Of a stretch of DNA of 64,000 nt, positions 2,408 to 46,076 are shown piece after piece. The translations under genes were made by a program, and so were the position numbers. This DNA comes from an uncultured Acidobacteriota bacterium (GTDB lineage Bacteria > Acidobacteriota > Thermoanaerobaculia > Thermoanaerobaculales > Sulfomarinibacteraceae): NCBI GenBank assembly GCA_963704125.1, contig CAVPHA010000015.1, forward strand, positions 34,587 through 98,586. Reading direction: 5' to 3'. Every line of letters begins with the position of its first letter. Position 1 is the stretch's first letter. The notes under the pieces were generated by a model. That model was not told where the DNA came from. It did no database searches and worked only from the letters and a program-made list of their open reading frames with translations.

Positions 2408-2451
2408 AAGGGCGCGGATTTGGCTGCGGTCCCGGTTCCGGATTCCCTCGA

Positions 2452-2817: not shown

Positions 2818-3537
2818 ATGGCCACACCGCACATCAACGCCGAACCCGGCGACTTCGCGCCCACGGTCCTCATGCCCGGCGATCCCCTGCGGGCGAAATA
2901 CATCGCCGAAACCTATCTCGAGGATGCCCGGCTGGTCTGCAATGTCCGCAACGTTTTCGGTTTTACCGGAAGCTATCGCGGTGACGAACTCTCGGTCATG
3001 GCGCACGGGATGGGGATCCCCTCGGCCTCGATCTACTTCTCCGAGCTCATGGAGCACTTCGGCGTCAAACGCATCATGCGGGTCGGAAGCTGCGGCACCT
3101 CGCACCCGGACGTCAAGCTCCGCGACATCGTCATCGCCATGGGCGCCTCGACCGACTCGGGGATCAACCGGATGCGATTCATGGGCCACGATCTCGCCGC
3201 CATCGCGAGCTTCAACCTCGTCCGCCACGCCGTGGACATCGCCGAAGCGCGGGATCTCCCCTACCACGTCGGCAACATCTTCTCCGCCGATCTCTTCTAC
3301 ACGCCGCAACCCGAGATCTTCGATCTCATGGCCAAGTACCAGATTCTCGGAGTCGAGATGGAGTCGGCCGGTCTCTATCCCCTCGCCGCCGAGCACGGCG
3401 TCGAGGCACTCGCTGTATGCACCGTCAGCGACAACATCCGCACCCATGAGGCGATGTCTTCAAAAGACCGGCAGACGAGCTTCAACCAGATGATCGAGCT
3501 CGCCCTCGAGACCGCGGTCGCCGCGAGTGGAAAGTGA
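2818..3537 (+). CDS. deoD: Purine nucleoside phosphorylase, DeoD type
   Basis: RBS GGAGGAG lies upstream of ATG 2818. [31 protein letters not shown]...[10 protein letters not shown]...[11 protein letters not shown] is a close match to hexameric DeoD PNP. 239 codons, intact. Confidence 0.93.
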
Positions 3538-3574
3538 ACCGTAAGGGTGCAAAGAACGCCAAGCGTCGGTGAAA

Positions 3575-3811
3575 TCAGAGCTTGCTGTGGGATCCGTCGC
3601 AACGCGGCTTATCGCCGGTCTTTTTGCACATGCAGATCGCGAGGGTGGATTTGGCCGCCACTTCCAGGGTCACCGGTTTGATCCCGCTCCCCTCGTGCGA
3701 CCGGTCGCACCAAGGCTGGTTCGCTGAGCGTCCGCAAGCACACCAGAAGTAGACACCTCTCTCGAGTTGGAGCACAACCGGCGCCGTGCCCGCGATCTTG
3801 GGTTCCGACAT
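3575..3811 (-). CDS. CDGSH iron-sulfur domain protein (two CDGSH-type motifs)
   Basis: MSEPKIAG...CACGRSANQPWCDRSHEG...CMCKKTGDKPRCDGSHSKL. Two C-x-C-x(8-10)-C-D-x-S-H motifs. 78 codons from ATG 3811. Confidence 0.85.
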   Translation of the reverse strand: MSEPKIAGTAPVVLQLERGVYFWCACGRSANQPWCDRSHEGSGIKPVTLEVAAKSTLAICMCKKTGDKPRCDGSHSKL

Positions 3812-3877
3812 GAATACCTCGATCCTTTGGAAACTCGCTCCAACCAAGATAGCAGGGTCGCCGCCAGGGTCCCGGAA

Positions 3878-4363
3878 ATGAACCGCAAGGACGCGAGGAA
3901 CGCAAGGCGTCGCAAACGCTTCATATGGGGCACGGATCGGGCTCGCTCCCAATGACAAAGACCCACGTCACCCTGAGCGCAGCGACCTCCTAGGTCGCGT
4001 AGTCGGAGCTCCCCTGAGGGTTGGAAGACCGCTCCTGTTGGCTCGTCCCACCGACCCTCGGGAGATTCTTCGACTCCCTCGCGGACTCGCTCGCTCAGAA
4101 TCACAGGTTTTTCGGCAGCTCCCGTCATTCCAAAGGTGGGCGACGCCAGGCGGCGTGGCGGTGCTCAGAATGACGGGCATCTTTCGGCCGCCGTCATCCC
4201 ACAGGCAGGCGCCGCCCTGGAGCGTGGCGGTGTTCGGGTCGACGACGATTCTCAGCGACTCCGCCGGCCGGGTCGGTTGCGATGCTTTGCGATGTCTTTG
4301 CGCCTTTGCGTCTTTGCTTTTCAACCCTGCGATGGAGCGATGCCTCTGCGCCTCTGCGTTAAG
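3878..4363. repeat. Heptad-periodic palindromic element E2 (long form with about 330-bp core)
   Basis: Left terminus 3878-3942: atgaac cgcaagg acgcgagg aacgcaagg cgtcgca...ggggcacggatcgg. Right terminus 4276-4363: ttgcgatg ctttgcgatg tctttgcg cctttgcg tctttgc ttttcaacc ctgcgatg...ctctgcg cctctgcg. The core carries gtca(c/t)cctgagc / ctcagaatgacgg hairpin motifs. Confidence 0.7.
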
Positions 4364-4371
4364 ACTCTCGC

Positions 4372-7026
4372 CTATCCACCGATGAGCGCCCTGACCTGTT
4401 CAGGCGCCTTCGCCAACGCCTCGTCGAGCTTGTCGACATCGGGACCGCCGGCCTGGGCGAGATTGGGTTTGCCGCCGCCTCGGCCGCCGACCACGGTGGC
4501 GAGCTCGCGGACGAGATCCCCGGCCTTGATCCGACCGGTGATGTCATCGGTGACGGCGGCGAGCAGGGTCGCCTTGCCATCCGACTCCATCCCCAGGACC
4601 ACCACCCCCGACCCCAACTTCTGGCGCATGGTGTCGGCCAGATTGCGGAGCTCTCCGGGGCTCATTTCCGGCGCCCGGCGGGCAAGCACCATCACGCCTT
4701 CGACCTCTTCGCGGATCTCCTCGACCCCGACATCACCCGAGGCGAGCTTGTGCTTGAGGGTCTTGACCTCGCGCTCGAGCTCGGAGAGCTGGCGATCGCG
4801 CTTGTCGAGGAGCTCGGGCAGCTGTTCGAAAGAGGTCTGGTAGCGACCCGCAAGTTCGTGCGCGAGCCGGGTGCGGTCCTGGACCAGCTCCACCGCGCCG
4901 CGGCCGGTCACAGCTTCGATGCGCCGCACCCCGGCGGCGACGCCGCGTTCGCCGGTGATGGTGCACAGACCGATGTCGCCGGTGCGATCGACGTGGCAGC
5001 CGCCGCAGAGCTCGCGCGAGAACTCACCATCGCCGACGGTGACGACCCGGACGTTCTCGCCGTACTTCTCACCGAAGAGCGCCATGGCGCCGAGGGCCTT
5101 CGCAGCGTCGATTGGCATGACGGTTTTGTCGAGGGGCCGGTTGCGGACGATCTCGGCGTTGACCAGCCGCTCGATCTCCTGGAGCTCGGCAAAGCTCACC
5201 GGCCCGTCCCACGAGAAGTCGAAGCGCAGCCGGTCGGGCTCGACCAACGAGCCGGCCTGCTGGGCGGCGTCGCCGAGCACGCGGTGAAGAGCGGCGTGGA
5301 GCAGGTGGGTGGCGGTGTGGTTGCGTTGGGTGTCGACCCGCGGGCCCTCGGAAACCGTGGCGATGACGGCGGCGCCCTTGACCAGCGCTCCCTCGATGAC
5401 CTCGATGCGGTGGACGATGAGACCGTCGATGGGTTTTTGGGTGTCGAAAACGCGGGCGTGACCACCCTCCCAGGTGATCTCGCCGCTGTCCCCGACCTGA
5501 CCGCCCGACTCGCCGAAAAACGGAGTCGTTTCGAGGACGACCTCACCCGACTCGCCGGGTTCGAGCTGATCCTCGAGCCCGTCCTCGCCGATGAGAGCGA
5601 TGACCTCGGTGTCGAGGGTGAGCCTTTCATAGCCGTCAAACTCCGATTTGACCCCCTTGTCGGCGAGATCCTCGTACTCTTCACGGTACCGGGCGGCGAG
5701 ATCGCCCTTCCACGACGCCTGACCGCGCTCGCGTTCCACCCTCAGCTCTTCCCGGAAACCCTCGTGATCGAGGGTGAGGCCTTCTTCCTGGGCAAACTCC
5801 TCAACCAGCTCGACTGGAATGCCGTGGGTCTGATAAAGATCAAAAACCACTCGCCCGGGAACCACCGTCTCGCCCGAGCGCTTGATCCGCTCGAGCTCGC
5901 GGCCGGCGATGTCGGTGCCGGCGTTGAGGGTGCGGGCGAAACGCCGCTCCTCCTGCTCGAGCTGGGTGGCGACAATTTCGTGGCGCTCGATGAGCTCGGG
6001 GTACTGCTCGCCCATAATTTCATCGACTACGGGCAACAAGGTGTAGAGGAACGCGCCGTCGAGACCGAGCTTGCGGCCGTAGCGCAGCGCGCGCCGGATG
6101 ATCCGGCGCAGCACATAGCCGCGGCCCTCGTTGGAGGGCACGACGCCGTCGGTGAGCAGGAACGCCGCGGCGCGGATGTGGTCCGCGATCACCCGGTATG
6201 CGGGAGCGAGTTCGCTCGCCGGGTCGTAGGGCCGCTCGACGAGTTTGCCGATGGCGTCGATGATGGGTACGAAGAGATCGGTGTCGTAGTTGGTTTCGAC
6301 CCCCTGCATGACGGTGGCGATGCGTTCGAGTCCGGCGCCGGTGTCGATGGAGGGGCGGGGCAGCGGTTCGAGCTTACCCGTCGGATCGCGATCGAACTGC
6401 ATGAAGACGAGGTTCCAGATCTCGATGATGTCGTCGCCCTCGCCGTTGACGAGCTCGGCGCGGCCCGGCGCGAAGGGGTCGGGGCCGCGATCGAAGTGGA
6501 TCTCGGAACAGGGACCGCAGGGACCGGTCTCGCCCATGGCCCAGTAGTTGTCCTTCTCGCCGAAGCGCAGGATGCGTTCCGGAGCGGCGCCGATCTCCTC
6601 CCAGAGCGCCGCGGCCTCGTCGTCATCGGTGTAGACGGTGAACCACAGCCGATCGACGGGCATGTCATAGACATCGACCAACAGGTCCCAGGCGAACCGG
6701 ATGGCGTCCCGCTTGAAATAGTCGCCGAAGGAAAAATTGCCGAGCATCTCGAAAAAGGTGTGGTGGCGCGCGGTGTAGCCCACATTCTCGAGGTCGTTGT
6801 GCTTGCCGCCGGCGCGGACGCACTTCTGCGATGAGGTGGCGCGGTTGTACGGTCGCTTCTCGCGGCCGATGAAGGTGTCCTTGAACTGGTTCATCCCGGC
6901 GTTGGCGAAGAGCAGGGTGGTGTCGCCGGCCGGCAACAACGAAGATGACGGCACGACCTGGTGGCCGTGCCCGGCAAAGAAGTCAAGAAAGGCGGCCCGG
7001 ATCTCCGAGCTGGTCATCGATTTCAT
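4372..7026 (-). CDS. alaS: Alanine--tRNA ligase
   Basis: 884-codon uninterrupted ORF. N-terminus SSEIRAAFLDFFAGHGHQVVPSSSL, then HHTFFEMLGNFSFGDYFK, the editing-domain HTATHLLHAAL motif, and a C-terminal DHHA1-like GGGKPNLAQAGG. Confidence 0.97.
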   Translation of the reverse strand: MKSMTSSEIRAAFLDFFAGHGHQVVPSSSLLPAGDTTLLFANAGMNQFKDTFIGREKRPYNRATSSQKCVRAGGKHNDLENVGYTARHHTFFEMLGNFSFGDYFKRDAIRFAWDLLVDVYDMPVDRLWFTVYTDDDEAAALWEEIGAAPERILRFGEKDNYWAMGETGPCGPCSEIHFDRGPDPFAPGRAELVNGEGDDIIEIWNLVFMQFDRDPTGKLEPLPRPSIDTGAGLERIATVMQGVETNYDTDLFVPIIDAIGKLVERPYDPASELAPAYRVIADHIRAAAFLLTDGVVPSNEGRGYVLRRIIRRALRYGRKLGLDGAFLYTLLPVVDEIMGEQYPELIERHEIVATQLEQEERRFARTLNAGTDIAGRELERIKRSGETVVPGRVVFDLYQTHGIPVELVEEFAQEEGLTLDHEGFREELRVERERGQASWKGDLAARYREEYEDLADKGVKSEFDGYERLTLDTEVIALIGEDGLEDQLEPGESGEVVLETTPFFGESGGQVGDSGEITWEGGHARVFDTQKPIDGLIVHRIEVIEGALVKGAAVIATVSEGPRVDTQRNHTATHLLHAALHRVLGDAAQQAGSLVEPDRLRFDFSWDGPVSFAELQEIERLVNAEIVRNRPLDKTVMPIDAAKALGAMALFGEKYGENVRVVTVGDGEFSRELCGGCHVDRTGDIGLCTITGERGVAAGVRRIEAVTGRGAVELVQDRTRLAHELAGRYQTSFEQLPELLDKRDRQLSELEREVKTLKHKLASGDVGVEEIREEVEGVMVLARRAPEMSPGELRNLADTMRQKLGSGVVVLGMESDGKATLLAAVTDDITGRIKAGDLVRELATVVGGRGGGKPNLAQAGGPDVDKLDEALAKAPEQVRALIGG

Positions 7027-7498
7027 GGTCTGAACTCTCCCTCTCGGTCGCGAGCCGGGTCACTGCGCGATAAGCGATATCGGCTGTAAACCCGCAGGCG
7101 ATGAGGGAGCTTACCAGACGTGCCCGGCGCTCGGGAAGCCGCCACCACCCCGGTTTCGCCCGCACCTCGACCTTGCGAACGGCGGTTTCAAGGGCGCGAC
7201 CGTGGAGCTCTTCTCCCAAAATGGACACCCGCTCGGCGAGATCGCCGTCGACCCCTCGACGGCGAAGCTCGAGCACCAGCCTGCGCGGGCCCCACCCGCG
7301 ATCGACCGAACGAAATTCGACAAAACGCTCCGCAAGCGCTTCATCGTCGAGCAGCCCGATCTCCGCCAGCCGCTCCAGGGCACGTTCGATATCGTCACTC
7401 TCGAAGCCCTTGCGGCGTAGCTTCTCAACCAGTTCGGCGCGGAAGTGATCGCGCCGGGCAAGCAGCTTGAGAGCTTTGTCGAAAGCGGGATTTTTCAA
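6983..7498 (-). CDS. recX: Recombination regulator RecX
   Basis: 171 codons, apparent TTG start at 7498. Repeated helical RecX pattern (ALKLLARRDHFRAELVEKLRRKGF...IERALERLAEIGLLDDEALAERF). Conserved recX-alaS synteny. Its 3' end overlaps the annotated alaS start by about 40 nt. Confidence 0.8.
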   Translation of the reverse strand: MKNPAFDKALKLLARRDHFRAELVEKLRRKGFESDDIERALERLAEIGLLDDEALAERFVEFRSVDRGWGPRRLVLELRRRGVDGDLAERVSILGEELHGRALETAVRKVEVRAKPGWWRLPERRARLVSSLIACGFTADIAYRAVTRLATERESSDHEIDDQLGDPGRLS

Positions 7499-7594
7499 TT
7501 CTTAATTCTAAACTCTTAATTCTTAATTACCATCGCAAGACCCCCGGTTGTGCCTGCGATGAAATTAAAAATTCATAATTAAAAATTCATAATT
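7498..7594. repeat. Heptad-periodic palindromic element E3 (AT-rich TTCTTAA subfamily)
   Basis: ttcttaa ttctaaa ctcttaa ttcttaa tt ac CATCGCA agacccccggttgtgcc TGCGATG a aattaaaaattcataattaaaaattcataatt. Same grammar as 53900-54016. Confidence 0.7.
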
Positions 7595-7630
7595 CGAGTT
7601 TGGAGCCTATTCGGAGGCTCCAAACTCGAA
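7593..7630 (-). terminator. Intrinsic-terminator-like hairpin overlapping the pilT stop codon
   Basis: Perfect 15-bp stem TTCGAGTTTGGAGCC (7593-7607) / GGCTCCAAACTCGAA (7616-7630) with an 8-nt loop. On the minus-strand RNA it is followed by UUAUGAAUUUUUAAUU. The pilT stop lies in the loop. Confidence 0.6.
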
Positions 7631-8788
7631 GGGCGAGTCTTCGGCAAAAGCGTCCATGGTCGAATCGGTGCCGAGCTCGAGAACACCCTCCATCTCCTCG
7701 CGCGACATATCCGAAGTCGATTGGATGCCCTGGATCTTGAGCTTGAACTCATCGGGATTGGTCGCCCGGCGAAGTGCCTCTTCGAGGGTAATGAGACCGT
7801 TTTTGTAGAGCAGATAGAGCGACTGATCGAAGGTCTGCATCCCGTACTGGCTGGTTCCCTGGGTGATGGCGTCGCGGATGAGCTTGGTCTTTTCCTTGTT
7901 CTCGATGCACTCACGAATGTAGGAGGTCGCGATGAGAATCTCCACCGCCGGGACCCGGCCCAGACCATCGGCCCGGGGTAGAAGTCGCATGGAGACGATC
8001 GCCTTGATCACCGCGGCGAGCTGGATGCGGATCTGCTTCTGCTGATGCGGCGGAAAGACCGAGATGATGCGGTTGACGGTCTCGGTCGCGTCGAGGGTGT
8101 GCAGGGTCGAAAGCACCAGGTGACCGGTCTCGGCCGCGAGCAGGGCGGTCTCGATGGTCTCGTAGTCACGCATCTCACCGACCAGGATGACATCGGGATC
8201 CTGGCGGAGCGCCGATCGCAGCGCAACGGAGAACTGTTTGGTGTCGACGTCGACCTCGCGCTGATTGATGATCGACTTCTTGTCGCGGTGGAGGAACTCG
8301 ATGGGGTCTTCGATTGTCATCACGTGCTCGATGCGGCGGGTGTTGATGTAGTCGATCATCGAGGCCAGGGAGGTCGATTTACCCGAGCCGGTGGTTCCGG
8401 TGACCAGGACCAATCCCCGTTGCTCCTCGCAGATCTTTTCCAGCACCGGCGGCAGCATGAGTTCCTTGAAGGTCTGAATCCGCGACGGAATGAGACGCAG
8501 GACGATCCCGACCGAACCACGCTGTTGGAAGATGTTGCAACGGAAACGACCCAACCCCGGCACCGAGTAGGCGATATCGGTCTCGAACTGGTGCTTGAAT
8601 CGTTCCTTCTGGCGGGACGACATCATGGAGAACGCCATGGCGATGGTGTCCTCCTGCATGAGTCGTTTGAATTCGGTCATCACCTGAAGGCGGCCGTCCA
8701 TCCTGAGAACGGGATGCGCCCCGACCTTGAGGTGGACATCCGAAGCCTTGCGCTCCACAGCGACCTTGAGGATGTCATTGATGTGCAT
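7607..8788 (-). CDS. pilT: Type IV pilus twitching-motility ATPase PilT
   Basis: GGAGG RBS lies before ATG 8788 (ORF extends to 8818). MHINDILKVAVERKASDVHL, Walker A GTTGSGKST, DPDVILVGEMRD, TLHT His box. Intact, with a longer acidic C-tail than classic PilT. Confidence 0.9.
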   Translation of the reverse strand: MHINDILKVAVERKASDVHLKVGAHPVLRMDGRLQVMTEFKRLMQEDTIAMAFSMMSSRQKERFKHQFETDIAYSVPGLGRFRCNIFQQRGSVGIVLRLIPSRIQTFKELMLPPVLEKICEEQRGLVLVTGTTGSGKSTSLASMIDYINTRRIEHVMTIEDPIEFLHRDKKSIINQREVDVDTKQFSVALRSALRQDPDVILVGEMRDYETIETALLAAETGHLVLSTLHTLDATETVNRIISVFPPHQQKQIRIQLAAVIKAIVSMRLLPRADGLGRVPAVEILIATSYIRECIENKEKTKLIRDAITQGTSQYGMQTFDQSLYLLYKNGLITLEEALRRATNPDEFKLKIQGIQSTSDMSREEMEGVLELGTDSTMDAFAEDSPFEFGASE

Positions 8789-8870
8789 CGACGAACCTCC
8801 GTTGGCGAACCTGATCACGTCAAGTGTACATCGGGATGCGGGTGGGGTGGAGTGGTTTGCCGCGCTGCGC

Positions 8871-9154
8871 GGAGGTATTAGGTATTAGGTGTTAGGTATT
8901 AGGTCATCGCAGTGGTGGTTGCCGGCGGCGCTTCCCCTTTGGATAAATGGTATTGGATGCCTGATTGATTCGCTGCCGGAAGGCGGCTGATTTGCAGCGC
9001 TGACGCCCCGTCGGCGTCGAGGACGACGAAGGTGGCTATGACGCCCACGAGACGTGCGCGCTACAACAAGCGATGCGGAGCCATCCACGAAGTCCTCCAT
9101 CCCAGAAACCGGATACAAATGCGATGGAGCTAATACCTAATACCTGATACCTCC
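8871..9154. repeat. Heptad-periodic palindromic element E4 (GGTATTA subfamily, 208-bp core)
   Basis: 8871-8911: ggaggtatta ggtatta ggtgtta ggtatta ggt CATCGCA. 9120-9154: TGCGATG gagc taatacc taatacc tgatacc tcc. Lies in the divergent pilT / symporter promoter gap. Confidence 0.75.
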
Positions 9155-9178
9155 GTAGCCCCAGCTACAATCCCCCTT

Positions 9179-10570
9179 GTGCCGAGTCTTGCCCTGATCC
9201 TGGTTGCGATCTACGCCATCGGCCTTCTGGCGCTGGCGCGGGGGAAGCCGTCCGCGGGCGGGATGGACTATCTCCTCGCCGGACGCAAGCTGACGCTCCC
9301 CGCCTTTGTCGCCACCCTGGTCACCACCTGGTACGGCGGCATCCTCGGGGTCGGCGAGTACGCCTGGCGCTTCGGGATCTCGACCTGGGTCGTCTTCGGC
9401 CTCCCCTATTACGCGGCCGCCCTGCTCTTCGCCTTCTGGCTCGCGCCGCGGCTGCGCCGAAGCGGCGCCGCGTCGATCCCCGATCTCCTGCTCGGCGCCT
9501 ACGGCCGGGGCGCCCGGCTCACCGGCGCCGCGGCCATCTTCGGTCTTACCCTGCCGGTCGCCTATCTGCTCATGCTGGCGACCCTTCTCACCCAGCTCAC
9601 CGGATGGCCGCCGCTGGTCGCGGTGGCGGTGGGGGCGGCCTTCTCGGCCGCTCTATGTCGGGATCTCGGGCTTCCGATCGGTGGTCCGGACCGACATCCT
9701 CCAGTTCGGACTCATGTACGCGGGGTTCTTCATCCTGCTCCCCGCCGCGCTGGCCCACACCGGCGGTCTTGCCGGTCTCTGGTCGACGCTCCCGGCGGAG
9801 CACCGGAGCTGGGACGGCGGTCTCGGTTGGCAGACGGTCCTGGTCTGGTATCTCATCGCGCTCCAGACCATGGTCGAGCCCAGCTTCTATCAACGGGTCT
9901 TCGCCGCCCGGACCCCCGCCGTCGCCCGTTCCGGCGTCGTGGTTTCGGTGGCGTTGTGGGCGCTCTTCGATTTCTTCTCCATCAGCTGTGGTCTTGCGGC
10001 CCGAGTGCTGCTGCCCCATCTCGACGACCCCCTCACCGCGTACCCCGCGCTCGCCGCAGATGGTGCTGCCGGCCTGGCTCGCTGCCTTTTTCACCCTGGC
10101 GCTCTTCGCCACCGTGATGTCGACCCTCGATTCTTATCTCTTTCTCTCCGCCGCCACCGTCGGCCACGATCTGACGAAGACTCCTCCATCACCCGGACAG
10201 GAGCGCCGGCGCATCCGTGCCGGTCTCTTCCTGTCCGCCATCCTCGCCTCGATCGGCGCCCTGCGTCTTCGACTCGGCGGTGACGGTCTGGCACCATGTC
10301 GGTTCGGTGGTGACCTCGGCGCTGCTGCTGCCCGTGGTCGGCGTCCACCTCCCCCAGCGCTGGCGGTTCAGTCCCATGGCGGCGACGACCGCCATGATCA
10401 GTGCGGCCGCGGTCGCGCTCGGCTGGATTCTCGCCGCCGGCGACGCAGGCTACCCCTTGGGAGTCGAACCCATGTTCCCCGCGCTCGGGTTGTCGGCGCT
10501 GGTTTGGGTCGTGGACAGGTCCAACGCAGAGACGCAGTGGCGCAGAGGCGCAGAGCCATCGCAGGGATGA
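9179..10570 (+). CDS. Sodium:solute symporter (SSS) family transporter, about 3 frame interruptions
   Basis: GTG 9179. Segments in three frames join: ...TTWYGGILGVGEYAWRFGIS..., ...LYVGISGFRSVVRTDILQFGLMYAGFF...SFYQRVFAART..., ...LFATVMSTLDSYLF..., ...VWHHVGSVVTSALLLPVV... The last about 50 nt are repeat E5 sequence. Confidence 0.75.
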
Positions 10571-10802
10571 ACCGCAAGGACGCAAGGGGCGCAAGGACAT
10601 CACATCATTCAATCATCACAACGTCTCAACCACGAAGACGCGAAGGAATCGCACGCGAAGACATCGCAGACGTCGCAAATAGGACGCGGATGATCACGGA
10701 TTCCGCGTTCATCCGCGTCCCATTGCGATGGACCTCTGCGCCTCTGCGTTGAACTGCGATGGTTGCGATGTCCTTGCGTCCCTTGCGACCTTGCGGTTCA
10801 AT
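10520..10802. repeat. Heptad-periodic palindromic element E5 (coreless form)
   Basis: Modules (cgcagag)n-catcgca, atgaac-(cgcaagg)3, tcaac-(cacgaag/acgcgaag)-acatcgca, then GGACGCGGATGA-tcacggattccgcgt-TCATCCGCGTCC at the centre. Followed by cattgcgatg-(ctctgcg)-ttgaac-tgcgatg-(ccttgcg)3-gttcaat. Confidence 0.8.
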
Positions 10803-10843
10803 CTGATCCCGAAGCGGGCGTACAATTCTCCCAGGAGGATCCC

Positions 10844-12396
10844 ATGCTCCCAATTCTCGACAACGACGGGATGCGCGAGGCGGATCGCCACACCATCGAA
10901 GACCTCGGCGTCCCCGGCATGGTGCTCATGGAGAACGCCGCCACCGGCGTCGTCGATGCCATCAGGGAGGTCTTCCCGGACGCCCGCCGGATCCTCATCC
11001 TCTGCGGTCCGGGCAACAACGGCGGCGACGGCTTCGCAGCCGCCCGCCACCTGCACAACGGCGGCCTCGATGTCCAGCTCTGCCTGGTCGGCGATCCCGC
11101 CAGACTCAGCCCCGACGCCGCCGCCAACCACCGTCTGGCGGAGGCCTTCGGCGTACCGACTGGCGGTGGTCGCGGACGATGATCTCTCACTCGTCGAGGC
11201 CATCCTCGACGACTGGCCCACCGATCTCGTGGTCGATGCCATCCTCGGCACAGGGAGCGATCGTCCGTTGACGGGACGCTACGCCGAGCTGGTGAACATC
11301 GTCGCCGCCTCCGGTCTCCCGGTGGTCGCCGTCGATGTTCCCACCGGGCTCAGCGGAAGCTCGTCGGAGATCCCGGGCGCGCATCTCCCGGCCGATCTCA
11401 CGGTGACCTTCGGCGCGCTCAAGATCTGCCACGCCCTGCCACCGGCCTGCATCAGCTGCGGCGAGGTCGCGGTGGTCGACATCGGCATCCCGCCACAGGC
11501 GATCGAGCAGGGTTGCTCGCTGCGGATGACCGAGGCGGAGGACATCGCGCTCATGCTCCCAGACCGTCGTCCCGACGGGCACAAGGGGCGGTTCGGCCAC
11601 CTCCTCATCGTCGCCGGCGCCAGCGGTCGCGGCGGTGCGGTCGCGATGGCCGCCAAATCGGCCGTCGTCATCGGCTCCGGGCTGGTCACCATGGCGGTTC
11701 CCGAACCCGTGGTCCCGGTCGTCGACGCCGCCTGTCTCGAGGCCATGACCCTCGGCCTTCCCGCCGACAAGAGAGGAGCCTTCGCCGGCGAAAAGGGGTT
11801 GGAGGACATCGTCGCGAGAGCGACGGCCATCGCAGCCGGACCGGGGATGGGGACCGGCGCGGGGGCGAAGAAGACCCTCGACTGGCTCCTGAAAAAGTGG
11901 GACGGACCGCTGCTTCTCGACGCCGACGCCATCAATCTTCTCGCCGGTTCGCCCAAGCGGTTGGCGGGTCGCAAGATCCCCGCGGTGCTCACCCCTCATC
12001 CCGGTGAACTCGCCAGGCTGCTCGGCGTGTCCACCGAGGCCGTTCTCGCCGACCGGCTCGACGCCGCGCGCTAGGCGGCGCGGCGATCCGGCGCCGTCGT
12101 CGTCGCCAAGGGCTACGGCACCATCATCGCCGAACCGGAGGGTCAGACATGGGTCAATCCCGACCGGTGACGTCGGTCTCGCCTCCGGGGGCTCCGGCGA
12201 TGTCCTCACCGGCGCCATCGGCGGGCTGCTCGCCCAGGGAGTCGATCCGCTGCGGGCCGCGCTCGTCGGCTGCTGGCTGCACGGCCGGGCCGGCGAGATC
12301 GGCGGCGAGATCTACCCCGCCGCCGTGCCTGCGAGCGAGCTTCCCGCCCTGCTCGCCGATGCCTGGAACGACCTGGAGGAACCGCGAGACGAATGA
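10844..12396 (+). CDS. nnr: Bifunctional NAD(P)H-hydrate repair enzyme Nnr (epimerase + ADP-dependent dehydratase), about 3-4 frame interruptions
   Basis: RBS AGGAGGA lies before ATG 10844. YjeF-N: [24 protein letters not shown]...[11 protein letters not shown]. Dehydratase: [28 protein letters not shown]...GPGMGTG...[13 protein letters not shown]...[11 protein letters not shown]. Stitched from three frames. Confidence 0.85.
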
Positions 12397-12872
12397 ACCT
12401 GCTGCAAACCTCGACCATCGCCGAGACCTTCGCGAGCCCGTCGGCCGACGCCACCGAAGCGGTCGGCGCAGCGCTCGCCGAGCTGCCTTCAGCCCGGTGA
12501 TGTGGTGCTCCTCGAGGGTGATCTCGCGGCCGGCAAGACGACCCTGGTGCGCGGCGCTGGTCCGCGCCCTCGGCGGCGACGCGACCGATGTCTCGTCACC
12601 CACGTTCGTGCTGCTGCAGAGCTACCACTGCAACCGCGGGTTCGTCGCGACCCTCCACCACGTGGATCTCTACCGTCTCGGCGAGAAGATCTCGGATCTC
12701 CGCGAGATCGGCATCGAGGAGGTGCTCTCGGATCCTGCCGCCGTGGTCGCGGTGGAGTGGCCGAAGGATGTGCTCGCGACCTGGATCCCCGCCGACGCGA
12801 GGGTCTGGCGGGTCGATCATCACCACCGGCGACGACGACGCGAGGCGCATCGAGGTCGTGGCGCCCGGGTAG
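12393..12872 (+). CDS. tsaE: tRNA t6A37 biosynthesis ATPase TsaE, about 3 frame interruptions
   Basis: ATG 12393 overlaps the nnr [21 protein letters not shown] (P-loop), [28 protein letters not shown]. Fragments lie in three frames, and the first and last share a frame. Confidence 0.8.
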
Positions 12873-12877
12873 CGGAC

Positions 12878-13408
12878 ATCAGAACCGCAAAGACGCGAAG
12901 ACGCCAAGACATCGCACACGAAGCCATCGCAAACGTCGCAAATAGGACGCGGATGAACGCGGATTCCGCGGATCAACACGGATCGGGTCCAGTGCCGACG
13001 TCGGCGCCTTCATTCTGATGGTCGTCAACCGGCCGGACGGTTGCCCTCGTCCAAGGGCCGAGGACCCAAGGCTCTGAGATTCGTCGGTATCGATCCTCTC
13101 CGAATCGATGACCAATCGTTTCTCAAGAATAGATAGATTGGGAGTGGATCCCAGGCGGAGCCGGCGCGCCGTAGGCGTGGCGGCCTGTGTATCGGGTGGG
13201 TGTGACGAACGCTGGCGTTCGGCGCGCCCACCCGATTCACAGGTGGTGGCGGTCCGACCGCCACCGACTCCGCCGCCTTCTTCGGCTGCGATGATCCGTG
13301 GAATCCGCGTTCATCCGCGTCCCATTGCGATGGTGCGATGCCTCTGCGTCTCTGCGTCTCTGCGTTGAAATGCGATGCTTTGCGCCCTTTGCGCCTTTGC
13401 GGTGAATC
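12878..13408. repeat. Heptad-periodic palindromic element E6 (long form with about 300-bp core)
   Basis: Left: agaac cgcaaag acgcgaag acgccaag acatcgca...catcgca aacgtcgca aat aggacgcggatgaacgcggattccgcggatca. Right (13290-13408) is the inverted copy: tgatccgtggaatccgcgttcatccgcgtcc cat tgcgatg...(ctctgcg)3 ttgaaa tgcgatg (ctttgcg)3 gtgaat. Confidence 0.8.
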
Positions 13409-13414
13409 ACCCGA

Positions 13415-14155
13415 TCAGGTCACGAGGATCCCGCCATCCACGGGGATGATGGCTCCGGTCATCCAGGAGGAGGCGTCCGACAACAGGTAGAGCACCATGG
13501 AGGAAATATCCCGCGGCTGGCCGATCCGGCCGAGGGGGTGCATGGCGCCCATGCCGACGACATCGTCACGGCTCATCCCGCGTCCGTCGTGGATCGGGGT
13601 GTCGACGACCGCCGGCATGATGGCGTTGACCCGCACCGTCGGCGCCCACTCGAGGGCGAGACACCGTGTCATGTGGTTGAGCGCGGCCTTGGATGCGTTG
13701 TACGCGATCATCCCCGGGATCACCCGGTCGGCCAGGGATGACGAGATGTTGACCACCGCCGGGGACTTGCCCTTCTTGAGCAGAGGCCCGAGGGCTCGGC
13801 TGAGGAGGTAGGGTCCGCGTACATTGACCGCGAAGACCCGGTCCCAGGTTTCGGGTTCGGTGTCGTCGAGGGTGGCCATCGGGGCGATCCCGGCGTTGTT
13901 GACCAGACCGTCGGCGGCGCCCCAGCGATCCTCGACCGCCCGCACCAGCGCCTCGACCTGATCGACGTCGGCAACATCGCAGGCGAAGGACCAGGCGCGA
14001 TCGCCGAGCCCGCCCACCACCTCGGCAAGCACCTCGGTGCGGCGCGCCACCAAACAGACTTCGGCGCCCGCCTCGTGCAGCAGATGGGCCGCATCGAGAC
14101 CGATCCCGCTCGACGCTCCGGTAACGATCACCCGTTGATTTCGTACTTCCAGCAT
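13415..14155 (-). CDS. Short-chain dehydrogenase/reductase (classical SDR)
   Basis: 246 codons, intact. TGASSGIG cofactor motif, NNAG, catalytic Y-x3-K (YNASKAAL). Confidence 0.9.
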   Translation of the reverse strand: MLEVRNQRVIVTGASSGIGLDAAHLLHEAGAEVCLVARRTEVLAEVVGGLGDRAWSFACDVADVDQVEALVRAVEDRWGAADGLVNNAGIAPMATLDDTEPETWDRVFAVNVRGPYLLSRALGPLLKKGKSPAVVNISSSLADRVIPGMIAYNASKAALNHMTRCLALEWAPTVRVNAIMPAVVDTPIHDGRGMSRDDVVGMGAMHPLGRIGQPRDISSMVLYLLSDASSWMTGAIIPVDGGILVT

Positions 14156-14326
14156 GGTTCCTCCGTTGGCGCTCGATTTTGCGGCTGCTCAGGGCTCGCT
14201 CGGAGCTTGCGGGTCTAGAATGGGTTCGATGACCAGTCCCGTGTCTTTCGTCGCACCGAGCCATCGACGCCTCGTACAACCACCCGGTTTCGCCGGCATT
14301 CCCATCGCCACCGGACGTAACCCGCG

Positions 14327-16354
14327 ATGAGCGGCGCCTGGGTCCTCGTCGCCCTCCTCGGTCCGCCGTTGGCGGCGCTCATCGCCGGTTTGACCCTGAG
14401 CGCGCGCCCGGTTCACCCGTTGGTCGTGATCGGGCTCAATGCGGTTTCGCCGGGCGCGGGGTTGGCGGCGGCGGGCAGACCGACCGTCGAATCGGCGTTC
14501 TGCGTCCTCATGGCACAGGCGAGCCTCGTCATCGCCGGCGCGATGGGGTCGCTGGGTTACTCGGTCCCGTTCATGATCGTCGGCGCCGTGTGGGCCTCGC
14601 TCTACACCCCGTTCAACCCGGCGGTGGTGGCCGACAAGGCTCTCGACCTCCCCGGGCGGGCGCTGGAGTCGCTGCCAACCACCTCGGCGAAAGCGGCGCC
14701 CCGAACACCCGCGATCTCCGGTTCCGCCATCGCATCCGAAGGAGACGAGTCCGCGACCGGCTACGCCGTCGAGGTAAAGTGCACCGAGTGCGGCGCCGAT
14801 GTCTCGGTGCCGGTGCTCCAGCGCATGGCCCACTGCGGTTTCTGCGGCAGCGACCACCTGGTGGTTGGCCACGATCAGACCTTGTATTTGAGCCTCCCCG
14901 AAAAGACCCCGACAGAGGCAGATCTCAAGGAGGCGCTCCTCGACCATTACCGATACCAGCACTACCTCAAACTCTTCCAGGCGTCGGTTCCCATGTTCCA
15001 GGTCGGCGCCACCGAGGCGACCGCGTCCGGCGCCCTGATCAGCCGACCGGAGGCCGAAGCCGCCGCCGCAGCGGCCGAGGCCATGGTCGCGAAAAAGGCG
15101 GACGCCTACCGCGCAAAACTCGCCCGCCAGCTCCAGATCGGCCGAACCGAGCGCTTTCTGTCTCCCTATCGCCACGGGATGGGAACCCTCTACCAGGCCG
15201 GCTTCGGCCGCCGCAAGGAGGACCAGGAGAAGACCCTCGGCTTCAAGATCGCCACCATCGAGGCCTCGGCCGCCGCGTCCTCGGCCGTCAAACTGCCCGA
15301 GATGGGCAAGCTCACCTACCTCCGGGCGCTGCACCCGGCCGCCGAGCGCCCGGCCGACGAGCTCAGTCTGGCCCTCGACCTCGACGAAGAAGTGTTACGA
15401 GGCGCGTTCGGCCATCTCGACCGCAAACAACTCGACCGCTCCATCAACACCATCCGACTCGGGTCGCGGTTCATCCGCGAGGTCAGCGCCGTCGTCTGGC
15501 GGCCGTGGTGGATCGTCGAGGTCTCCGCGCCAAAGATCCACGAACGGATCCTGGTCGACAGCGCCTCGGGATCGGTGATCGGCGCGGCCCCCACCTTCGA
15601 CCGCGGCGCGCTGCTCACCGAGTTACCCGAGGCCGCCCGCGATGCCGGCAGCGGGCTCCACTTCATCCCCATGGAGTGCCCCACCTGCGGCCACGAATTC
15701 GGTTTCGACAGCGACGCTGTGCTCCATTTTTGTAGAAACTGCCACCGAGTCTGCCGGGTTTCTGGCCGGCGCAAGGAAATTGTCGAATATTCCCGCACCG
15801 ATAGCATTGACGATGGCTTCGATCTCGTGCCCTTCTGGCTCTTCCCGCTCAGGATCCGGACTGCCGGCGGTGAACTCATCACCGATCTCGCCCACCTCAA
15901 GGACGGGATCGACGGCACCATGGACCAGATCGGCGACGACGCCCCCATGCGGCAGCACGGGCTCTACGTGCCCGCCATCCGCTGCATCAACTCGCGGCTC
16001 ATGGGCGAAGCCTTCAACCGGCTCTTCGACCACACCATCCGCGAGCGGTTCCGTACCAACCACGAACGCTACCCTCTCGACCTCAAACCCCGGCCGTGGT
16101 CGATCCATCTCGACGAAGCCGAGGCGCGCAATCTCGCGCCGCTCTATCTCGCCAACGCCTTCGGCCGCCGCGACCTCGCCCGGGTCAACGTCGACCAGGT
16201 GGCGAGCTGGCTCTTCGACGCCGAACAGGAAACCGAGGGCCGACTCGTCTACCTGCCCATCCCCAGGGTCGTGACCAATCCCTTCCGGCAGTACATCGGG
16301 CGATTCCAGGGGCGGGCGTTGGGAAAGGGCGACGAAGGGGGCTTGAGGGCTTGA
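14327..16354 (+). CDS. Hypothetical membrane-anchored protein with two CxxC-x14-CxxC zinc ribbons
   Basis: 675-codon uninterrupted ORF. The first 100 aa are hydrophobic (about 3 predicted TM helices). Ribbons CTECGADVSVPVLQRMAHCGFC (nt 14780-14845) and CPTCGHEFGFDSDAVLHFCRNC (nt 15677-15742). I recognise no family. Confidence 0.6.
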   Translation: MSGAWVLVALLGPPLAALIAGLTLSARPVHPLVVIGLNAVSPGAGLAAAGRPTVESAFCVLMAQASLVIAGAMGSLGYSVPFMIVGAVWASLYTPFNPAVVADKALDLPGRALESLPTTSAKAAPRTPAISGSAIASEGDESATGYAVEVKCTECGADVSVPVLQRMAHCGFCGSDHLVVGHDQTLYLSLPEKTPTEADLKEALLDHYRYQHYLKLFQASVPMFQVGATEATASGALISRPEAEAAAAAAEAMVAKKADAYRAKLARQLQIGRTERFLSPYRHGMGTLYQAGFGRRKEDQEKTLGFKIATIEASAAASSAVKLPEMGKLTYLRALHPAAERPADELSLALDLDEEVLRGAFGHLDRKQLDRSINTIRLGSRFIREVSAVVWRPWWIVEVSAPKIHERILVDSASGSVIGAAPTFDRGALLTELPEAARDAGSGLHFIPMECPTCGHEFGFDSDAVLHFCRNCHRVCRVSGRRKEIVEYSRTDSIDDGFDLVPFWLFPLRIRTAGGELITDLAHLKDGIDGTMDQIGDDAPMRQHGLYVPAIRCINSRLMGEAFNRLFDHTIRERFRTNHERYPLDLKPRPWSIHLDEAEARNLAPLYLANAFGRRDLARVNVDQVASWLFDAEQETEGRLVYLPIPRVVTNPFRQYIGRFQGRALGKGDEGGLRA

Positions 16355-16410
16355 GTCCGCGTCCGGGTCCGCCAGCGGTACCGATGACCTTCTGGGCTTG
16401 AACCACCGAG

Positions 16411-16576
16411 TTTGAAACACAAAGGACACAAAGAGCCACGAAGGTGCCACCAAGCATCGAAGATTGAGCCGCGTTCTTTCCGTTTCTGACTGCGGGGCCT
16501 ATTCCGATACCTTGCGATGAGTCAGAAGATGTCCTTTGTGGTTTCTTTGTGGATCTTGGTGCTCTTTGTGTTTCAG
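16411..16576. repeat. Heptad-periodic palindromic element E7 (CACRAAG subfamily)
   Basis: 16411-16462: ttgaaa cacaaag gacacaaag agccacgaag gtgccaccaag catcgaag. 16511-16576: cttgcgatg...tcctttgtg gtttctttgtg gatcttggtg ctctttgtg tttcag. Spacer about 48 nt. Confidence 0.8.
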
Positions 16577-16613
16577 ATATGTGCGCAGCGGTCCGCGTGG
16601 TTACAGCCCTATC

Positions 16614-16658
16614 GGGCACGGGCACGGGCTCGGGCACGGGCTCGGGCTCGGGCTCGGG
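16614..16658. repeat. Hexamer tandem array (GGGCWC)7
   Basis: gggcac gggcac gggctc gggcac gggctc gggctc gggctc, read directly. An inverted counterpart array lies at 42042-42074. Confidence 0.8.
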
Positions 16659-16707
16659 AGAGGGTGCGCTATTCTTAACCGGCAGTATTAAAGACACCGG
16701 AGGAGCC

Positions 16708-17136
16708 ATGGCAGCCGAAATCTTCACCAGCAAATGGGCCGATCTCTGGACCGACGCGATCAACGCCAACGCCGACTACAAGAAGGCCGCGACCAAGTGG
16801 GAGGGCGCCATCGGCCTGGTCATGACCGTCGACGGCGACATGGGGATCCCGTCGGAGCGGATCGTCGTTGCCGATCTCTGGCACGGCGACTGCCGCGGCG
16901 CGGCCACCGCCACCGAAGCCGATCTCGAAGACGTTCCCTATCTCATCAAGGCCAACCCCGCCACCTGGAAGAGTGTGCTCATCGGCAAGACCGACCCCAT
17001 CGTCGGCCTCATGGGCGGCAAGCTCAAGCTCGCCAAGGGCAGCCTCTTCGCGTTGCTTCCGTATGCCAAGGCGGCGAAAGAGCTGGTCAACTCGGCGATC
17101 GCGGTGGACACCAGCTATCCCGACGGCTGGAACTGA
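16708..17136 (+). CDS. SCP2 sterol-binding domain protein
   Basis: RBS GGAGGAG lies before ATG 16708. 142 codons. FTSKWADLWTDAINANADYKKAA...LIGKTDPIVGLMGGKLKLAKGSLFALLPYAKAAKEL is a typical SCP-2 fold signature. Confidence 0.8.
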   Translation: MAAEIFTSKWADLWTDAINANADYKKAATKWEGAIGLVMTVDGDMGIPSERIVVADLWHGDCRGAATATEADLEDVPYLIKANPATWKSVLIGKTDPIVGLMGGKLKLAKGSLFALLPYAKAAKELVNSAIAVDTSYPDGWN

Positions 17137-17839
17137 GGGCCGGGGCAGGCGACCGGGGCAGCGTCGCGGCATGGCACTCGGCTGTTCCTGAGGCAGCGTC
17201 CGCTGACGACGGCCGATGTCAAGGGCATGACGAATCGCCGCGACGGCGACCCTGTGACATCGGCAGCATCTCAGCGGCTGGTCGGGGGCATGAACGACCA
17301 GGACAGTGACCGCGGCACGACGCGCAGCTGCTGATCACCGGCGTCATCGCCCACCGTAAAGCCCTCGAGAGCCGCACGGCATCGCAATGCCGGATCGACC
17401 CTCCGGCATCTCGGCGACGTGCACGAGCCATCGCCGTGACCGGCGCTCGCCTCCGGACGATCGGCCTCATCGCCGCGGCAAGGTGCCTCGGCGCACGAAG
17501 CAAGCCGCCGGCGTCTGCATCGTGCGGCGTCGCAACCCGGCCGATGCACCACTCACGCGATCCCGTCGATACGGGCGACGCCGGGACGACCGAAGGCGGA
17601 TCTCGTGTCCAGGACGGTGCCGTGCAGAACCGGCGAATCCAGTCGGCAGCCGATCCGGGATCACTCCGCGTCGATTTCCGAGACCGATGCCGACCAGGGC
17701 ACGCGGAATCGGCGTTCATCGGGACGTGCACGTAATTGTGCCTCATCGACCATCCGGCACGCGCCGCGCGCCGCGCACAATTGCGTCACGGGGCACTCCA
17801 CGGGGAGAGCGATGCGGTCTTCTGTTCCGGCTCGGAGGC

Positions 17840-17962
17840 AGGCCGCCGGCGTACCATCGGCGTGGTCGCAGCCCTTCCAATCCACCCCCGAGCGACCACG
17901 CCGATGGGGCGACGCTGGGGCGCTGGGACGCCAAGCGTCACGGCGGACCAGAAGGCCGGAGC
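17840..17962. repeat. Hairpin repeat, copy B (reverse orientation of 2452-2560)
   Basis: Same 16-bp stem (17854-17869 / 17892-17907), with the loop being the reverse complement of copy A's loop. Flanks align over about 120 nt. Confidence 0.7.
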
Positions 17963-18231: not shown

Positions 18232-18304
18232 AAGCCGAGCGAAGAACCAAAAAACCGGCGCTCGAGCGCCACACGAGCCGGACAAGCCGGCAAGGAGGAT
18301 CAGA

Positions 18305-18778
18305 ATGACCGCCAAGAAGAAAGCCAAGAAGGTCCAGACCGAAATCGTCGAGAACGCCCACCAGATCTGGCTCGCCGGTCTCGGCGCCGTCGCCACCGCC
18401 CAGGAAGAGGGCGGCAAGCTCTTCAAGAGCCTCGTCGAGAAGGGCCAGGACTTCGAGAAGCTCGGCAAGGACAAGGTCGAGCAGGCCAAGGGCGCCGTCA
18501 GCGGCGTCAAGGTCGTGGCCGAGAGCTACTGGGAGACCTTCGAGCGCACCCTCGATGACAAGGTGACCGGCGTCATCCACCGCATGGGCGTTCCCACCAA
18601 GGACGAGATCGATACCCTCACCGAGCGGGTCGAGAACCTCACCGCGTCCATCGACAAGCTCCGCGCGAAGGAGACCCGCCAAACCGCGCACCCGCGCCAA
18701 GACCGCCGCGCAAGAAACCCGCCGCCAAGAAGGCCGCGACCGCCGACGAAGCCCGCCGCCGCGACGACTCCGAAGTAA
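18305..18778 (+). CDS. Phasin-family PHA granule-associated protein (PF05597-like)
   Basis: RBS AAGGAGG lies before ATG 18305. NAHQIWLAGLGAVATAQEEGGKLFKSLVEKG...VPTKDEIDTLTERVENLTASIDKL matches the phasin/PhaF N-domain. The Pro/Arg-rich tail may hide compensating frameshifts (another frame reads KKPAAKKAA). Confidence 0.75.
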   Translation: MTAKKKAKKVQTEIVENAHQIWLAGLGAVATAQEEGGKLFKSLVEKGQDFEKLGKDKVEQAKGAVSGVKVVAESYWETFERTLDDKVTGVIHRMGVPTKDEIDTLTERVENLTASIDKLRAKETRQTAHPRQDRRARNPPPRRPRPPTKPAAATTPK

Positions 18779-18812
18779 GTATCCGACCGATCGACGCATC
18801 GATCATCGATCA

Positions 18813-46053: not shown

Positions 46054-46076
46054 GCGCCACACCACACTGAACTTCG

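Follow-up and report, generated by a model that had tools for sequence, protein, structure and literature searches.

Modular hairpin repeats with inward-pointing arrays in the intergenic DNA of a Thermoanaerobaculales-like genome, and a link to phages

Four loci in the genome of an uncultured Acidobacteriota bacterium are built from short tandem arrays that face each other across the centre of an intergenic spacer. They lie within a 64,000-nucleotide stretch of contig CAVPHA010000015.1 (assembly GCA_963704125.1, positions 34,587 to 98,586), here called the window, and are designated wA (10520-10802), wB (12878-13408), wC (3878-4363) and wD (46105-46530). At about even odds (probability roughly 0.5), they are stacks of selfish, non-autonomous foldback elements or hairpin repeats resembling bacterial interspersed mosaic elements (BIMEs) and REPINs, hairpin-forming doublets of repetitive extragenic palindromes (REPs), that have accumulated in the intergenic DNA of a Thermoanaerobaculales-like genome. 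Four observations underlie this reading: the arrays obey a modular grammar with a fixed polarity, termini and cores recur together, most orthologous spacers lack such elements, and one kind of arm, marked by CGGAT, is present in phage contigs.

A modular grammar across the window

The basic module consists of a short linker of the TGAAC or TTTCAC type, two to four tandem 7-10-mers and the heptamer CATCGCA. When 92 occurrences in the window and in related contigs are aligned, the linker consensus is (G)TT(G/T/C)A(A)C, followed by 2-4 units and then CATCGCA. Module types are distinguished by their unit core, including GCAAGG, GCAGAG, CGAAGA, AGGTATT, AATTCTT, CACAGAT and others, and Tandem Repeats Finder together with direct reading yields further array units (AGGTATT/CTAATAC, GTTAGGA/CCTCACT, AGTTGAC, CACAAAG, CCCGTG, GCTGGAT, TCGGGC and TTCTTAA). 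Many arrays close with CATCGCA on their inner side, and those bounded by it never exceed about four units. Modules are chained head to tail along each arm, and all of them point inward to the centre of the spacer.

This arrangement is reflected in the distribution of the heptamer, which occurs 34 times in the window against an expectation of 14.4 +/- 3.5. Twenty-five of the 34 copies fall within 5.7% of the window (binomial p about 2e-24), and at every locus the plus-strand copies all precede the minus-strand copies (left 8:1, right 0:16; Fisher p = 8e-6). The motif AATAGGACRCGGATGA, allowing up to three mismatches, is found six times where 0.68 occurrences are expected. The system occupies about 15 spacers, of which wA-wD are the most elaborate, and a count from the gap list places modules in about half of the true intergenic regions examined in the window. 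By direct reading of the gene map, the elements are oriented without regard to how the flanking genes are transcribed.

Anatomy of the four composite elements

wA stands between the end of a symporter gene and the start of nnr, and comprises the following parts.

10520-10802, no strand: wA, coreless composite foldback
10524-10563, plus strand: Q module, ACGCAGAG four times, then CATCGCA; the upstream open reading frame (ORF) runs through it and stops at 10568-10570
10568-10605, plus strand: K module, TGAAC, CGCAAGGA three times and a degenerate CATCACA; pairs with 10764-10800 (37 nt, 92% complementary)
10632-10677, plus strand: CGAAGA-type units interleaved with ATCGCA/CATCGCA/GTCGCA
10678-10724, no strand: minimal CGGAT hairpin element, AATAGGACGCGGATGA-TCACGGATTCCGCGT-TCATCCGCGTCCCATT
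10724-10800, minus strand: right arm, TGCGATG, CTCTGCG twice with TTGAAC, TGCGATG twice, TCCTTGCG three times with GTTCA

The sequence-only reading had described wA as a coreless copy whose termini abut directly, and this is borne out at its centre, where AATAGGACGCGGATGA and TCATCCGCGTCCCATT are separated by a 15-nt loop and no core (in motif form, GGACGCGGATGA-15 nt-TCATCCGCGTCC). It had also remarked that module order differs between the two arms. Direct reading agrees, and the order differs because the arms are higher-order repeats of independent modules. The single-stranded DNA fold of wA has z = -9.1 relative to shuffled controls.

At its left end, wA also meets a coding sequence. The symporter ORF (window 10517-10570) extends 16 codons into the GCAGAG array, its stop being a TGA inside GGGATGAAC, so arrays can change protein C-termini. 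The symporter orthologue in the related contig L084 ends directly after TTCAACGCA.

wB lies between the convergent tsaE and SDR genes and encloses a core, termed B-type.

12878-13408, no strand: wB, composite foldback with a B-type core
12881-12940, plus strand: left outer modules, (A)GAAC with CGCAAAGA-type units three times and CATCGCA, CACGAAGC with CATCGCA, AACGTCGCA
12941-12984, plus strand: left CGGAT arm, AATAGGACGCGGATGA with three CGGAT decamers; 94% complementary to 13292-13326
12985-13286, plus strand: B-type core; 13013-13070 is 98% identical to locus L140, and the right part is homologous to L002 13349-13479, L140 and L098
13153-13275, plus strand: four-way-junction module of about 125 nt, with closing helix GGCGGAG/CTCCGCC, a short GC hairpin, a long variable hairpin (13195-13240) and the hairpin GGTGGCGG-TCCGA-CCGCCACC
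13287-13406, minus strand: right arm, TGCGATG, CGGAT arm 13294-13326, TGCGATG twice, CTCTGCGT three times with TGAAA, TGCGATG, CTTTGCGC three times with GTGAA

Both arms of wB carry a K array of CGCAAAGA-type 8-mers, CATCGCA/TGCGATG, AAT(A/G)GGACGCGGATGA and CGGAT decamers, and its single-stranded DNA fold reaches z = -14.5. The composite junction CATCGCA-[AG]ACGTCGCAAATAGGACGCGGATGA is present in both wA and wB, one repeat pair extending over 94 nt at 83% identity. The two remaining elements are less complete.

3878-4363, no strand: wC, composite, downstream of alaS, with K arrays on both arms
3967-4104: wC core, inverted-repeat element GTCACCCTGAGCG...CGCTCAGAATCAC
4121-4177: wC core, inverted-repeat element CCCGTCATTC...GAATGACGGG
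4257-4266: wC core, GACTCCGCCG junction
46105-46530, no strand: wD, composite, directly after a canonical intrinsic terminator (46076-46099)
46160-46483: D-type unit of wD, with a four-unit left end and a three-unit right end

In wC, the exact CATCGCA is on the right arm only, the left arm reading CGTCGCA; the left arm has only a degenerate ATGGGGCACGGATC, and the right arm is without a CGGAT array. In wD, both arms include the inner repeat and CGGAT arrays, only the right arm has the K array and CATCGCA, and the left outer array is of another type (GTGAAC/CGTGATC). Their folds are unremarkable (z = -1.8 for wC and -1.7 for wD). Of the three elements to which common composite termini had been attributed, wB has them in full, while wC and wD share only some of the modules. 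The inverted termini of ~100 nt are not single terminal repeats: the outer arms are chains of independent modules, and these modules stand alone in about ten other spacers. Such spacers include simple members of the system.

7497-7595, no strand: AATTCTT four times, CATCGCA, 17 nt, TGCGATG, AATTCAT-type array
8873-9152, no strand: AGGTATT four times, CATCGCA, 208-nt core, TGCGATG, CTAATAC three times; L002 has the same left array and frame with only 21 nt inside
102-150, 3534-3563, 7497-7595, 8873-9152, 16413-16658, 42042-42265, 45518-45570, 48293-48383, 49920-50300, 53901-54014 and 57784-57812: further array spacers, with inverted or single arrays of the same grammar, many bounded by CATCGCA/TGCGATG

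The cores are recurrent repeat families

The cores had been regarded as unrelated cargo between shared ends. Core-to-core BLAST among the three window cores does return no match, in keeping with part of that description, but the cores have homologues elsewhere, and GACTCCGCCG is common to those of wB and wC, where it lies 11-12 nt ahead of the first right-arm TGCGATG. The cores are a few conserved repeat families travelling with the same termini, not arbitrary cargo. Their recurrence elsewhere, proposed as a check, is found for both the D-type and the B-type at non-homologous loci in other genomes.

The D-type unit, uniform at about 345 nt, turns up in other metagenomes at unrelated loci, where its two ends, which differ from each other, are preserved. 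Alignments cover the whole of wD in L106b (370 nt, 74%) and L158 (331 nt, 69%), 203 nt in L106a and part of the element in L130; L106 carries two D-type copies within 3.5 kb. The cores of the inner repeats are spaced 307, 310 and 311 nt apart in three full-length copies. D-type copies keep their four-unit and three-unit ends with matching spacers, and polarity is therefore inherited with the unit. Single-base indels in the D-type alignment exclude a conserved ORF, and units range from 45 to 400 nt. A hammerhead considered for the D-type core (CTGATGAG) was dropped, as the motif is not conserved across copies.

The wB core matches L140 at 76-84% (with the 58-nt stretch at 98%), L002 13349-13479 at 85%, and L098. 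Genes flanking the D-type and B-type copies are unrelated to each other and to those of the window except in L098, whose B-type element adjoins the orthologue of window gene 56876-57769; at that place the window has only a short GTTAGGAG array.

In an improbable alternative, the cores, especially 13153-13275, would be small structured RNA genes and the arrays incidental or insulators. The module is predicted to fold on the plus strand into a four-way junction of -106.9 kcal/mol (z = -7.5), more stable than the minus strand at -92.4, and the hairpins named earlier at 13195-13240 and 13247-13267 are both present in the predicted fold. Compensatory changes affect 11 of its 48 pairs, mostly in the long hairpin; a covariance model recovers four copies at 90-141 bits, plus a diverged inverted second copy in L140; and there is the 98% identity of window and L140 over 58 nt of core. 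These signals come from only four sequences, and DNA palindromes yield the same apparent covariation. The L002 module is antisense to both neighbouring genes, and the two L140 copies are mutually inverted. Neither Rfam 15, at the gathering score and at E <= 1, nor ARAGORN gives a match within the elements, and widening the family with weaker matches (L015, L008 and the second L140 copy) produced a poor, uninformative alignment. The suggestion that cores encode small RNAs may hold for 13153-13275, on a sample of four sequences.

Another dispersed structured repeat, about 140-200 nt long and 73-85% identical between copies, occurs at window 2440-2640 and 17736-17940 and at L002 6477-6616, L083 7599-7715, L084 15486-15700, L081 1-125 and L144 2698-2907. 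It combines a short GC hairpin with a long one, which reads CAATCAGCGTGGTCG...CGACCACGCTGATTG in L083 and L084, and the four-way-junction model matches it weakly, at 25.5 bits.

The CGGAT arm is present in phage contigs

Within the CATCGCA frames of wA, wB and wD lies an inner element, bounded by inverted repeats in which AATGGGACACGGAT leads into CACGGAT decamers: AAT(G/A)GGAC(A/G)CGGAT and then CACGGAT units 2-3 nt apart. The repeats are present on both ends of wA, wB, wD, L099, L106a, L106b, L112a, L151 and L158, and the CGGAT element also stands alone as a hairpin of 45-100 nt. A metagenome search with TCGCAN{2,3}RGGACRCGGAT proved too loose, about 14 of the 80 loci returned being real and most being chance matches. 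The roughly 14 loci are organized alike, with variable outer arrays, CATCGCA, AATGGGACACGGAT with decamers, a centre and then the inverse. In this sample, the inner repeat cores are spaced 30, 57 or 89 nt apart without a core and 183-369 nt apart with one.

Viral contigs in IMG/VR were scanned with CACGGATN{2,3}CACGGATN{2,3}CRCRGAT, a pattern with 19 bases fixed, two positions twofold degenerate and four possible spacings, for which we estimate fewer than one chance match per 1e11 bases. At least 120 stretches with triple CACGGAT arrays were found, at G+C contents of 32-68% (L205, L207, L209, L211-L289). The arrays stand there as hairpins in spacers or as single arms ahead of genes. A few matches with an exact 9-nt period resemble unrelated coding repeats. 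Among the matches listed, 15 of 106 viral arrays carry a (T)TTTAAC prefix, and TGAAAC, GGAAAC and TTGGGA-type prefixes also occur; the phage arrays share the linker-plus-three-units design of the bacterial modules. Several of the array-bearing viral contigs that were checked encode portal, capsid or terminase proteins.

The viral arrays are also polar. Among the matches listed, neighbouring arrays no more than 141 nt apart form 23 head-to-head pairs and 3 tail-to-tail pairs. L205 has five hairpins between phage genes in 14 kb, and two of the three loops read hold a terminator-like hairpin. In L209, L234, L238 and L289, a single arm immediately precedes AGGAGG-ATG; of the single phage arrays among the matches listed, only 8 of 73 are within 60 nt before a Shine-Dalgarno sequence and ORF.

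Neither GenBank phages nor PLSDB plasmids contained a BLAST match to the element sequences, and one pattern scan of IMG/VR for the K array with CATCGCA likewise found none. A search for presence/absence polymorphism among the viral loci returned none. Readings of the CACGGAT arrays as CsrA sites, CtrA boxes, DnaA boxes or IHF sites would each fit only a subset of copies or fail on spacing, and a type IIS site (GCGATG inside TGCGATG) was noted only as a speculative idea.

Turnover of orthologous spacers

Orthologous spacers in relatives, with flanking genes 78-91% identical, are mostly without elements of the wA-wD type. The contig L002 is collinear with window 3574-17148 (genes 77-87% identical), and its spacers hold the same kinds of modules in other arrangements. 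In its counterpart of wC, a K array is accompanied by CATCGCA in three copies and by a CGGAT arm, and where the window has a 330-nt core there is just the terminal hairpin of the B module. In L081, with flanking genes 88-91% identical, the tsaE-SDR spacer is without these modules and contains other hairpin repeats instead, and the spacers of L081, L083, L084 and L001 differ in content from those of the window. Identity between L083 and the window shifts sharply, from 89% around alaS to 78% around nnr, and recombination between lineages probably adds to spacer turnover.

A closer pair, L083 and L084 (90-94% identical), differs by clean indels of 256 and 445 nt (L084 10762-11018 and 15111-15556) with imperfect direct repeats of about 10 nt, CAACCA[AC]GGG and CCTCAA[GC]GC. 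Each indel holds several hairpin repeats, one of the two indels begins with TGCGATG and an AGC-type array, and the families involved are other than those of wA-wD. The alternatives for this clade are insertion of composite repeats with duplication and their loss between microhomologies.

True microsatellites also occur in this clade. The spacer between the divergent pilT and symporter genes has a microsatellite in its promoter region, flanked by inverted GCGTCC/GGACGC arrays. By our own counts it comprises about 39 copies of GCAGCG in L083 and about 25 in L084, and about 12 of GCAGTG in L001.

L083 7550-8060 and L084 15080-16010: microsatellite sites, orthologous to window 8822-9190
L001 3570-3900: microsatellite site

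In L001, L083 and L084, hexamer arrays (GGACGC, GGGATC, GGGCAC) immediately precede the conserved -10 box of nnr (GCGTACAAT), and arrays abut this box in all relatives, with units differing by lineage. True microsatellites and lineage-specific arrays at the nnr promoter are what would be expected if all the elements were simple-sequence repeats expanded in place by slippage, with symmetry arising by hairpin-templated repair and no dispersal. As a general account this is very improbable, and it is already contradicted by recurring junctions: identical composite junctions (CATCGCA-[AG]ACGTCGCAAATAGGACGCGGATGA) stand at separate loci in wA and wB, and the same junctions occur in other genomes. 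The variable 2-3-nt spacers inside units are also unlike slippage products, as is the ceiling of about four units in CATCGCA-bounded arrays.

Mobility and class membership

The selfish-repeat reading draws on the inward polarity of the modules, because it matches the two ends of a mobile unit, and on the excess of head-to-head over tail-to-tail pairs, though both would form a hairpin. It is further favoured because units of conserved length have two different ends, are dispersed to unrelated loci and phages, and turn over fast at orthologous sites.

Several results weigh against it. Direct repeats of at least 3 nt, sought beside the inner repeat boundary in 9 elements, were absent, so that no target-site duplication was found there, and the flanks of the inner repeat instead continue the palindrome (...TCGCAAT, element, ATTGCGA...). 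Inspection by eye of the outer TGAAC...GTTCA ends also revealed no target duplication. No transposase or HUH gene was found beside any copy across about 300 loci. Copies within a genome (wA-wB 78-89%, L106a-L106b 75%) are no closer than copies between genomes, which gives no hint of a recent burst. Nested insertion in its simple form does not explain the two arms, whose module orders are not mirror images. None of the relatives examined exceeds 95% identity, the closeness at which an empty site for wA-wD would show, and the simple element 7497-7595 is kept at its orthologous site in L083, L084 and L004. The constancy of 2-4 units per array could, moreover, be a functional length constraint.

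Candidate enzymes were sought in other ways. A tblastn search with an approximate IS200 TnpA query matched only an unrelated locus. No gene family is common to more than 9 of 72 array-bearing viral loci, and a phage-encoded enzyme linked to the arrays was set aside, the shared genes nearby being only structural (portal, capsid, terminase).

The main rival, itself rather unlikely, holds that the elements are selected functional signals, either long RNA stem-loops in transcripts of the spacers, acting as RNase III sites, 3'-end protection or insulation, or DNA arrays for nucleoid or regulatory proteins, and that the common sequence reflects a binding or processing factor of both host and phage. 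Very stable folds (13153-13275, wA and wB), arrays held at 2-4 units or ~25-30 bp per arm, and the retention of 7497-7595 all accord with this. So do the L205 hairpins in five phage spacers with their terminator-like loops, the single arms before AGGAGG-ATG and, though their units differ, the arrays abutting the nnr -10 box. Yet most orthologous spacers are wholly different between close relatives, orientation ignores flanking transcription, each of the many array types would require its own factor, and few single phage arrays (the 8 of 73 above) precede a ribosome-binding site. Canonical terminators also stand beside elements; as they precede wD and the L158 copy, the elements are not needed as terminators. 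Selfish and functional readings are not mutually exclusive, and REP/BIME elements are commonly discussed as both.

Assignment to an existing class is partial in each case. The elements share with MITEs their terminal inverted repeats, small non-coding size and dispersed copies at unrelated sites, and they occur in filled and empty forms. They lack the 2-10 bp target-site duplication, and no autonomous partner was found across about 300 loci. The MITE label first given to them is supported in part; the absence of duplication speaks against both strict MITE membership and a standard DDE mechanism. The cargo-carrying part of that label fails, as the cores belong to conserved families recurring with the same termini. 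In contrast to the REP/BIME/REPIN definition of a 20-40-nt palindrome with a GTAG or CGTC tag, the arms are arrays and the tag is CATCGCA. Long inverted termini of sub-repeats around a variable or missing middle are those of foldback elements, a likeness of architecture and not of descent. Simple-sequence repeats are a poor fit, given units with variable spacers and arrays held at 2-4 units, behaviour unlike that of the true microsatellites in the clade.

Possible mode of spread

Under the selfish-repeat reading, each locus would have three layers: outer array modules, the inner CGGAT element, and a centre that is empty or holds a D-type, B-type or other inverted-repeat core. The earlier idea of an insertion-accepting hairpin fits this layered anatomy. 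Units may be copied in trans by an enzyme encoded elsewhere, with the heptamers as multiple binding sites and no target duplication; a candidate would be a hairpin- or single-strand-specific enzyme, such as one of the HUH/Y1 or IS110-like type. New copies would land preferentially in existing palindromes, after which one-sided deletion, unequal recombination and slippage would scramble module order. Phages may ferry the inner element between hosts.

A tentative extension, of low probability, is that the elements form an undescribed class of prokaryotic mobile or recombinogenic element with iteron-like ends, common to uncultivated tailed phages and Acidobacteriota. The ends would consist of a linker with three spaced heptamers, closed in the bacterial lineage by the invariant CATCGCA, a layout resembling the iteron-plus-nick-site pattern of HUH origins. 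Such an element could spread via hairpin DNA without target duplication, and could carry conserved structured modules such as the four-way junction.

Genomic setting

The G+C content of the window is 65.7%. Metagenome-assembled genomes labelled Thermoanaerobaculales or Acidobacteriota (L002, L004, L001) match its alanyl-tRNA synthetase at 84-86% identity. Gene names around wA and wB were taken from orthologous annotated loci, giving the order sodium:solute symporter, wA, nnr (YjeF_N/Carb_kinase), tsaE, wB and an SDR gene on the opposite strand. An exact-protein lookup of the window SDR protein found none on record. Frameshifts and premature stops are apparent in many window genes, for example at 9191-10516 (symporter, in four pieces), 12069-12156 (nnr) and 12486-12550 (tsaE), which suggests a long-read assembly with many indel errors and not true pseudogenes. 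The repeats are not an assembly artefact, because the same modules are present in short-read assemblies (L002, k141 contig) and in JGI contigs.

Three other features of the window were noted. A sub-threshold Rfam match to an nhaA-I riboswitch-like RNA lies on the minus strand at 44925-44968 (32.1 bits against a gathering score of 37, E = 0.014). Within a long ORF, positions 25838-26970 repeat a coding segment six times in diverged form, with matches of 90 nt at intervals of about 165-354 nt; this is a repeat-domain protein with no relation to the foldback elements. The AT-rich segment 18040-18230, upstream of a lysine/alanine-rich ORF (18299-18780), has several (T)GCCGCA boxes and TTGACA-like hexamers and looks like a strong regulated promoter.

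Relation to known repeat systems

Like REP, BIME and REPIN sequences, the elements are short intergenic hairpin repeats in alternating orientation that form mosaics with linkers, make no target-site duplication, occur as singletons, doublets and clusters, and vary strongly between strains (PMC3733652, PMC3116915). The arms here are instead tandem 7-10-mer arrays and not 20-40-nt imperfect palindromes, the tag is an inner CATCGCA in place of GTAG or CGTC, and conserved cores of 125-330 nt occupy the centres. The sequence examined showed no RAYT gene.

Eukaryotic foldback elements make target duplications. In FB, Galileo and Tetris, as here, long inverted termini are composed of tandem sub-repeats, arm length and composition vary, and the middle is present or absent; the sub-repeats of Galileo are multiple transposase-binding sites (PMC3573991, PMC3688188, PMC4079207). 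Transposases are known for those elements, whereas the present ones reside in a bacterial chromosome and phages and show no duplication.

BOX modules are 45-60 nt long and are not 8-mer arrays. The pneumococcal BOX (boxA-boxB(n)-boxC; PMC3049150) and the neisserial intergenic mosaic element (NIME), with RS units bounded by dRS3 (PMC1797815), are nevertheless intergenic mosaics of variable modules punctuated by a short conserved motif, as found here, and both combine a variable internal module number with stable predicted secondary structure. The punctuation of NIME is a 20-bp inverted repeat, motifs and organisms differ in both systems, and neither has the strict inward polarity around a centre. 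Cyanobacterial short tandemly repeated repetitive (STRR) sequences, the TAACTGA repeats of Beggiatoaceae (PMC4679880) and GGGGATT repeats (PMC4692102) are similarly tandem intergenic 7-mers at many loci. One or a few units dominate in those genomes, and TAACTGA sets are almost all direct, whereas here many types occur in 2-4 copies as inverted pairs ending in CATCGCA.

MITEs of phages and their hosts are likewise small, non-coding intergenic elements with inverted ends in cellular and viral genomes, and the survey of them attributes its largest phage set, 99 of 284 phage MITEs, to phages of Acidobacteriae UBA7540 (PMC11602168). The definition given there needs a 2-10-bp target duplication, which was not found here. 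The UBA7540 phage MITEs and the CGGAT hairpins may be the same phenomenon. No description of these sequence strings, or of repeats in Thermoanaerobaculia, was found in the literature. The mosaic-repeat kind itself is known; what is new is an intergenic variant with an unexpected phage link.

Implications

Present in about half of the spacers examined, the modules shape promoters, 3' ends and ORF ends, and because of the elements intergenic sequence is replaced far more rapidly than the surrounding genes. Hairpin-forming repetitive sequence of this kind may confound assembly, binning and gene calling. The CACGGAT hairpin of phages could be a vehicle of horizontal spread or point to a common host factor, and it might mark phage-host pairs in a poorly known phylum. 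If the mechanism proves new, these elements would be a bacterial counterpart to eukaryotic foldback elements.

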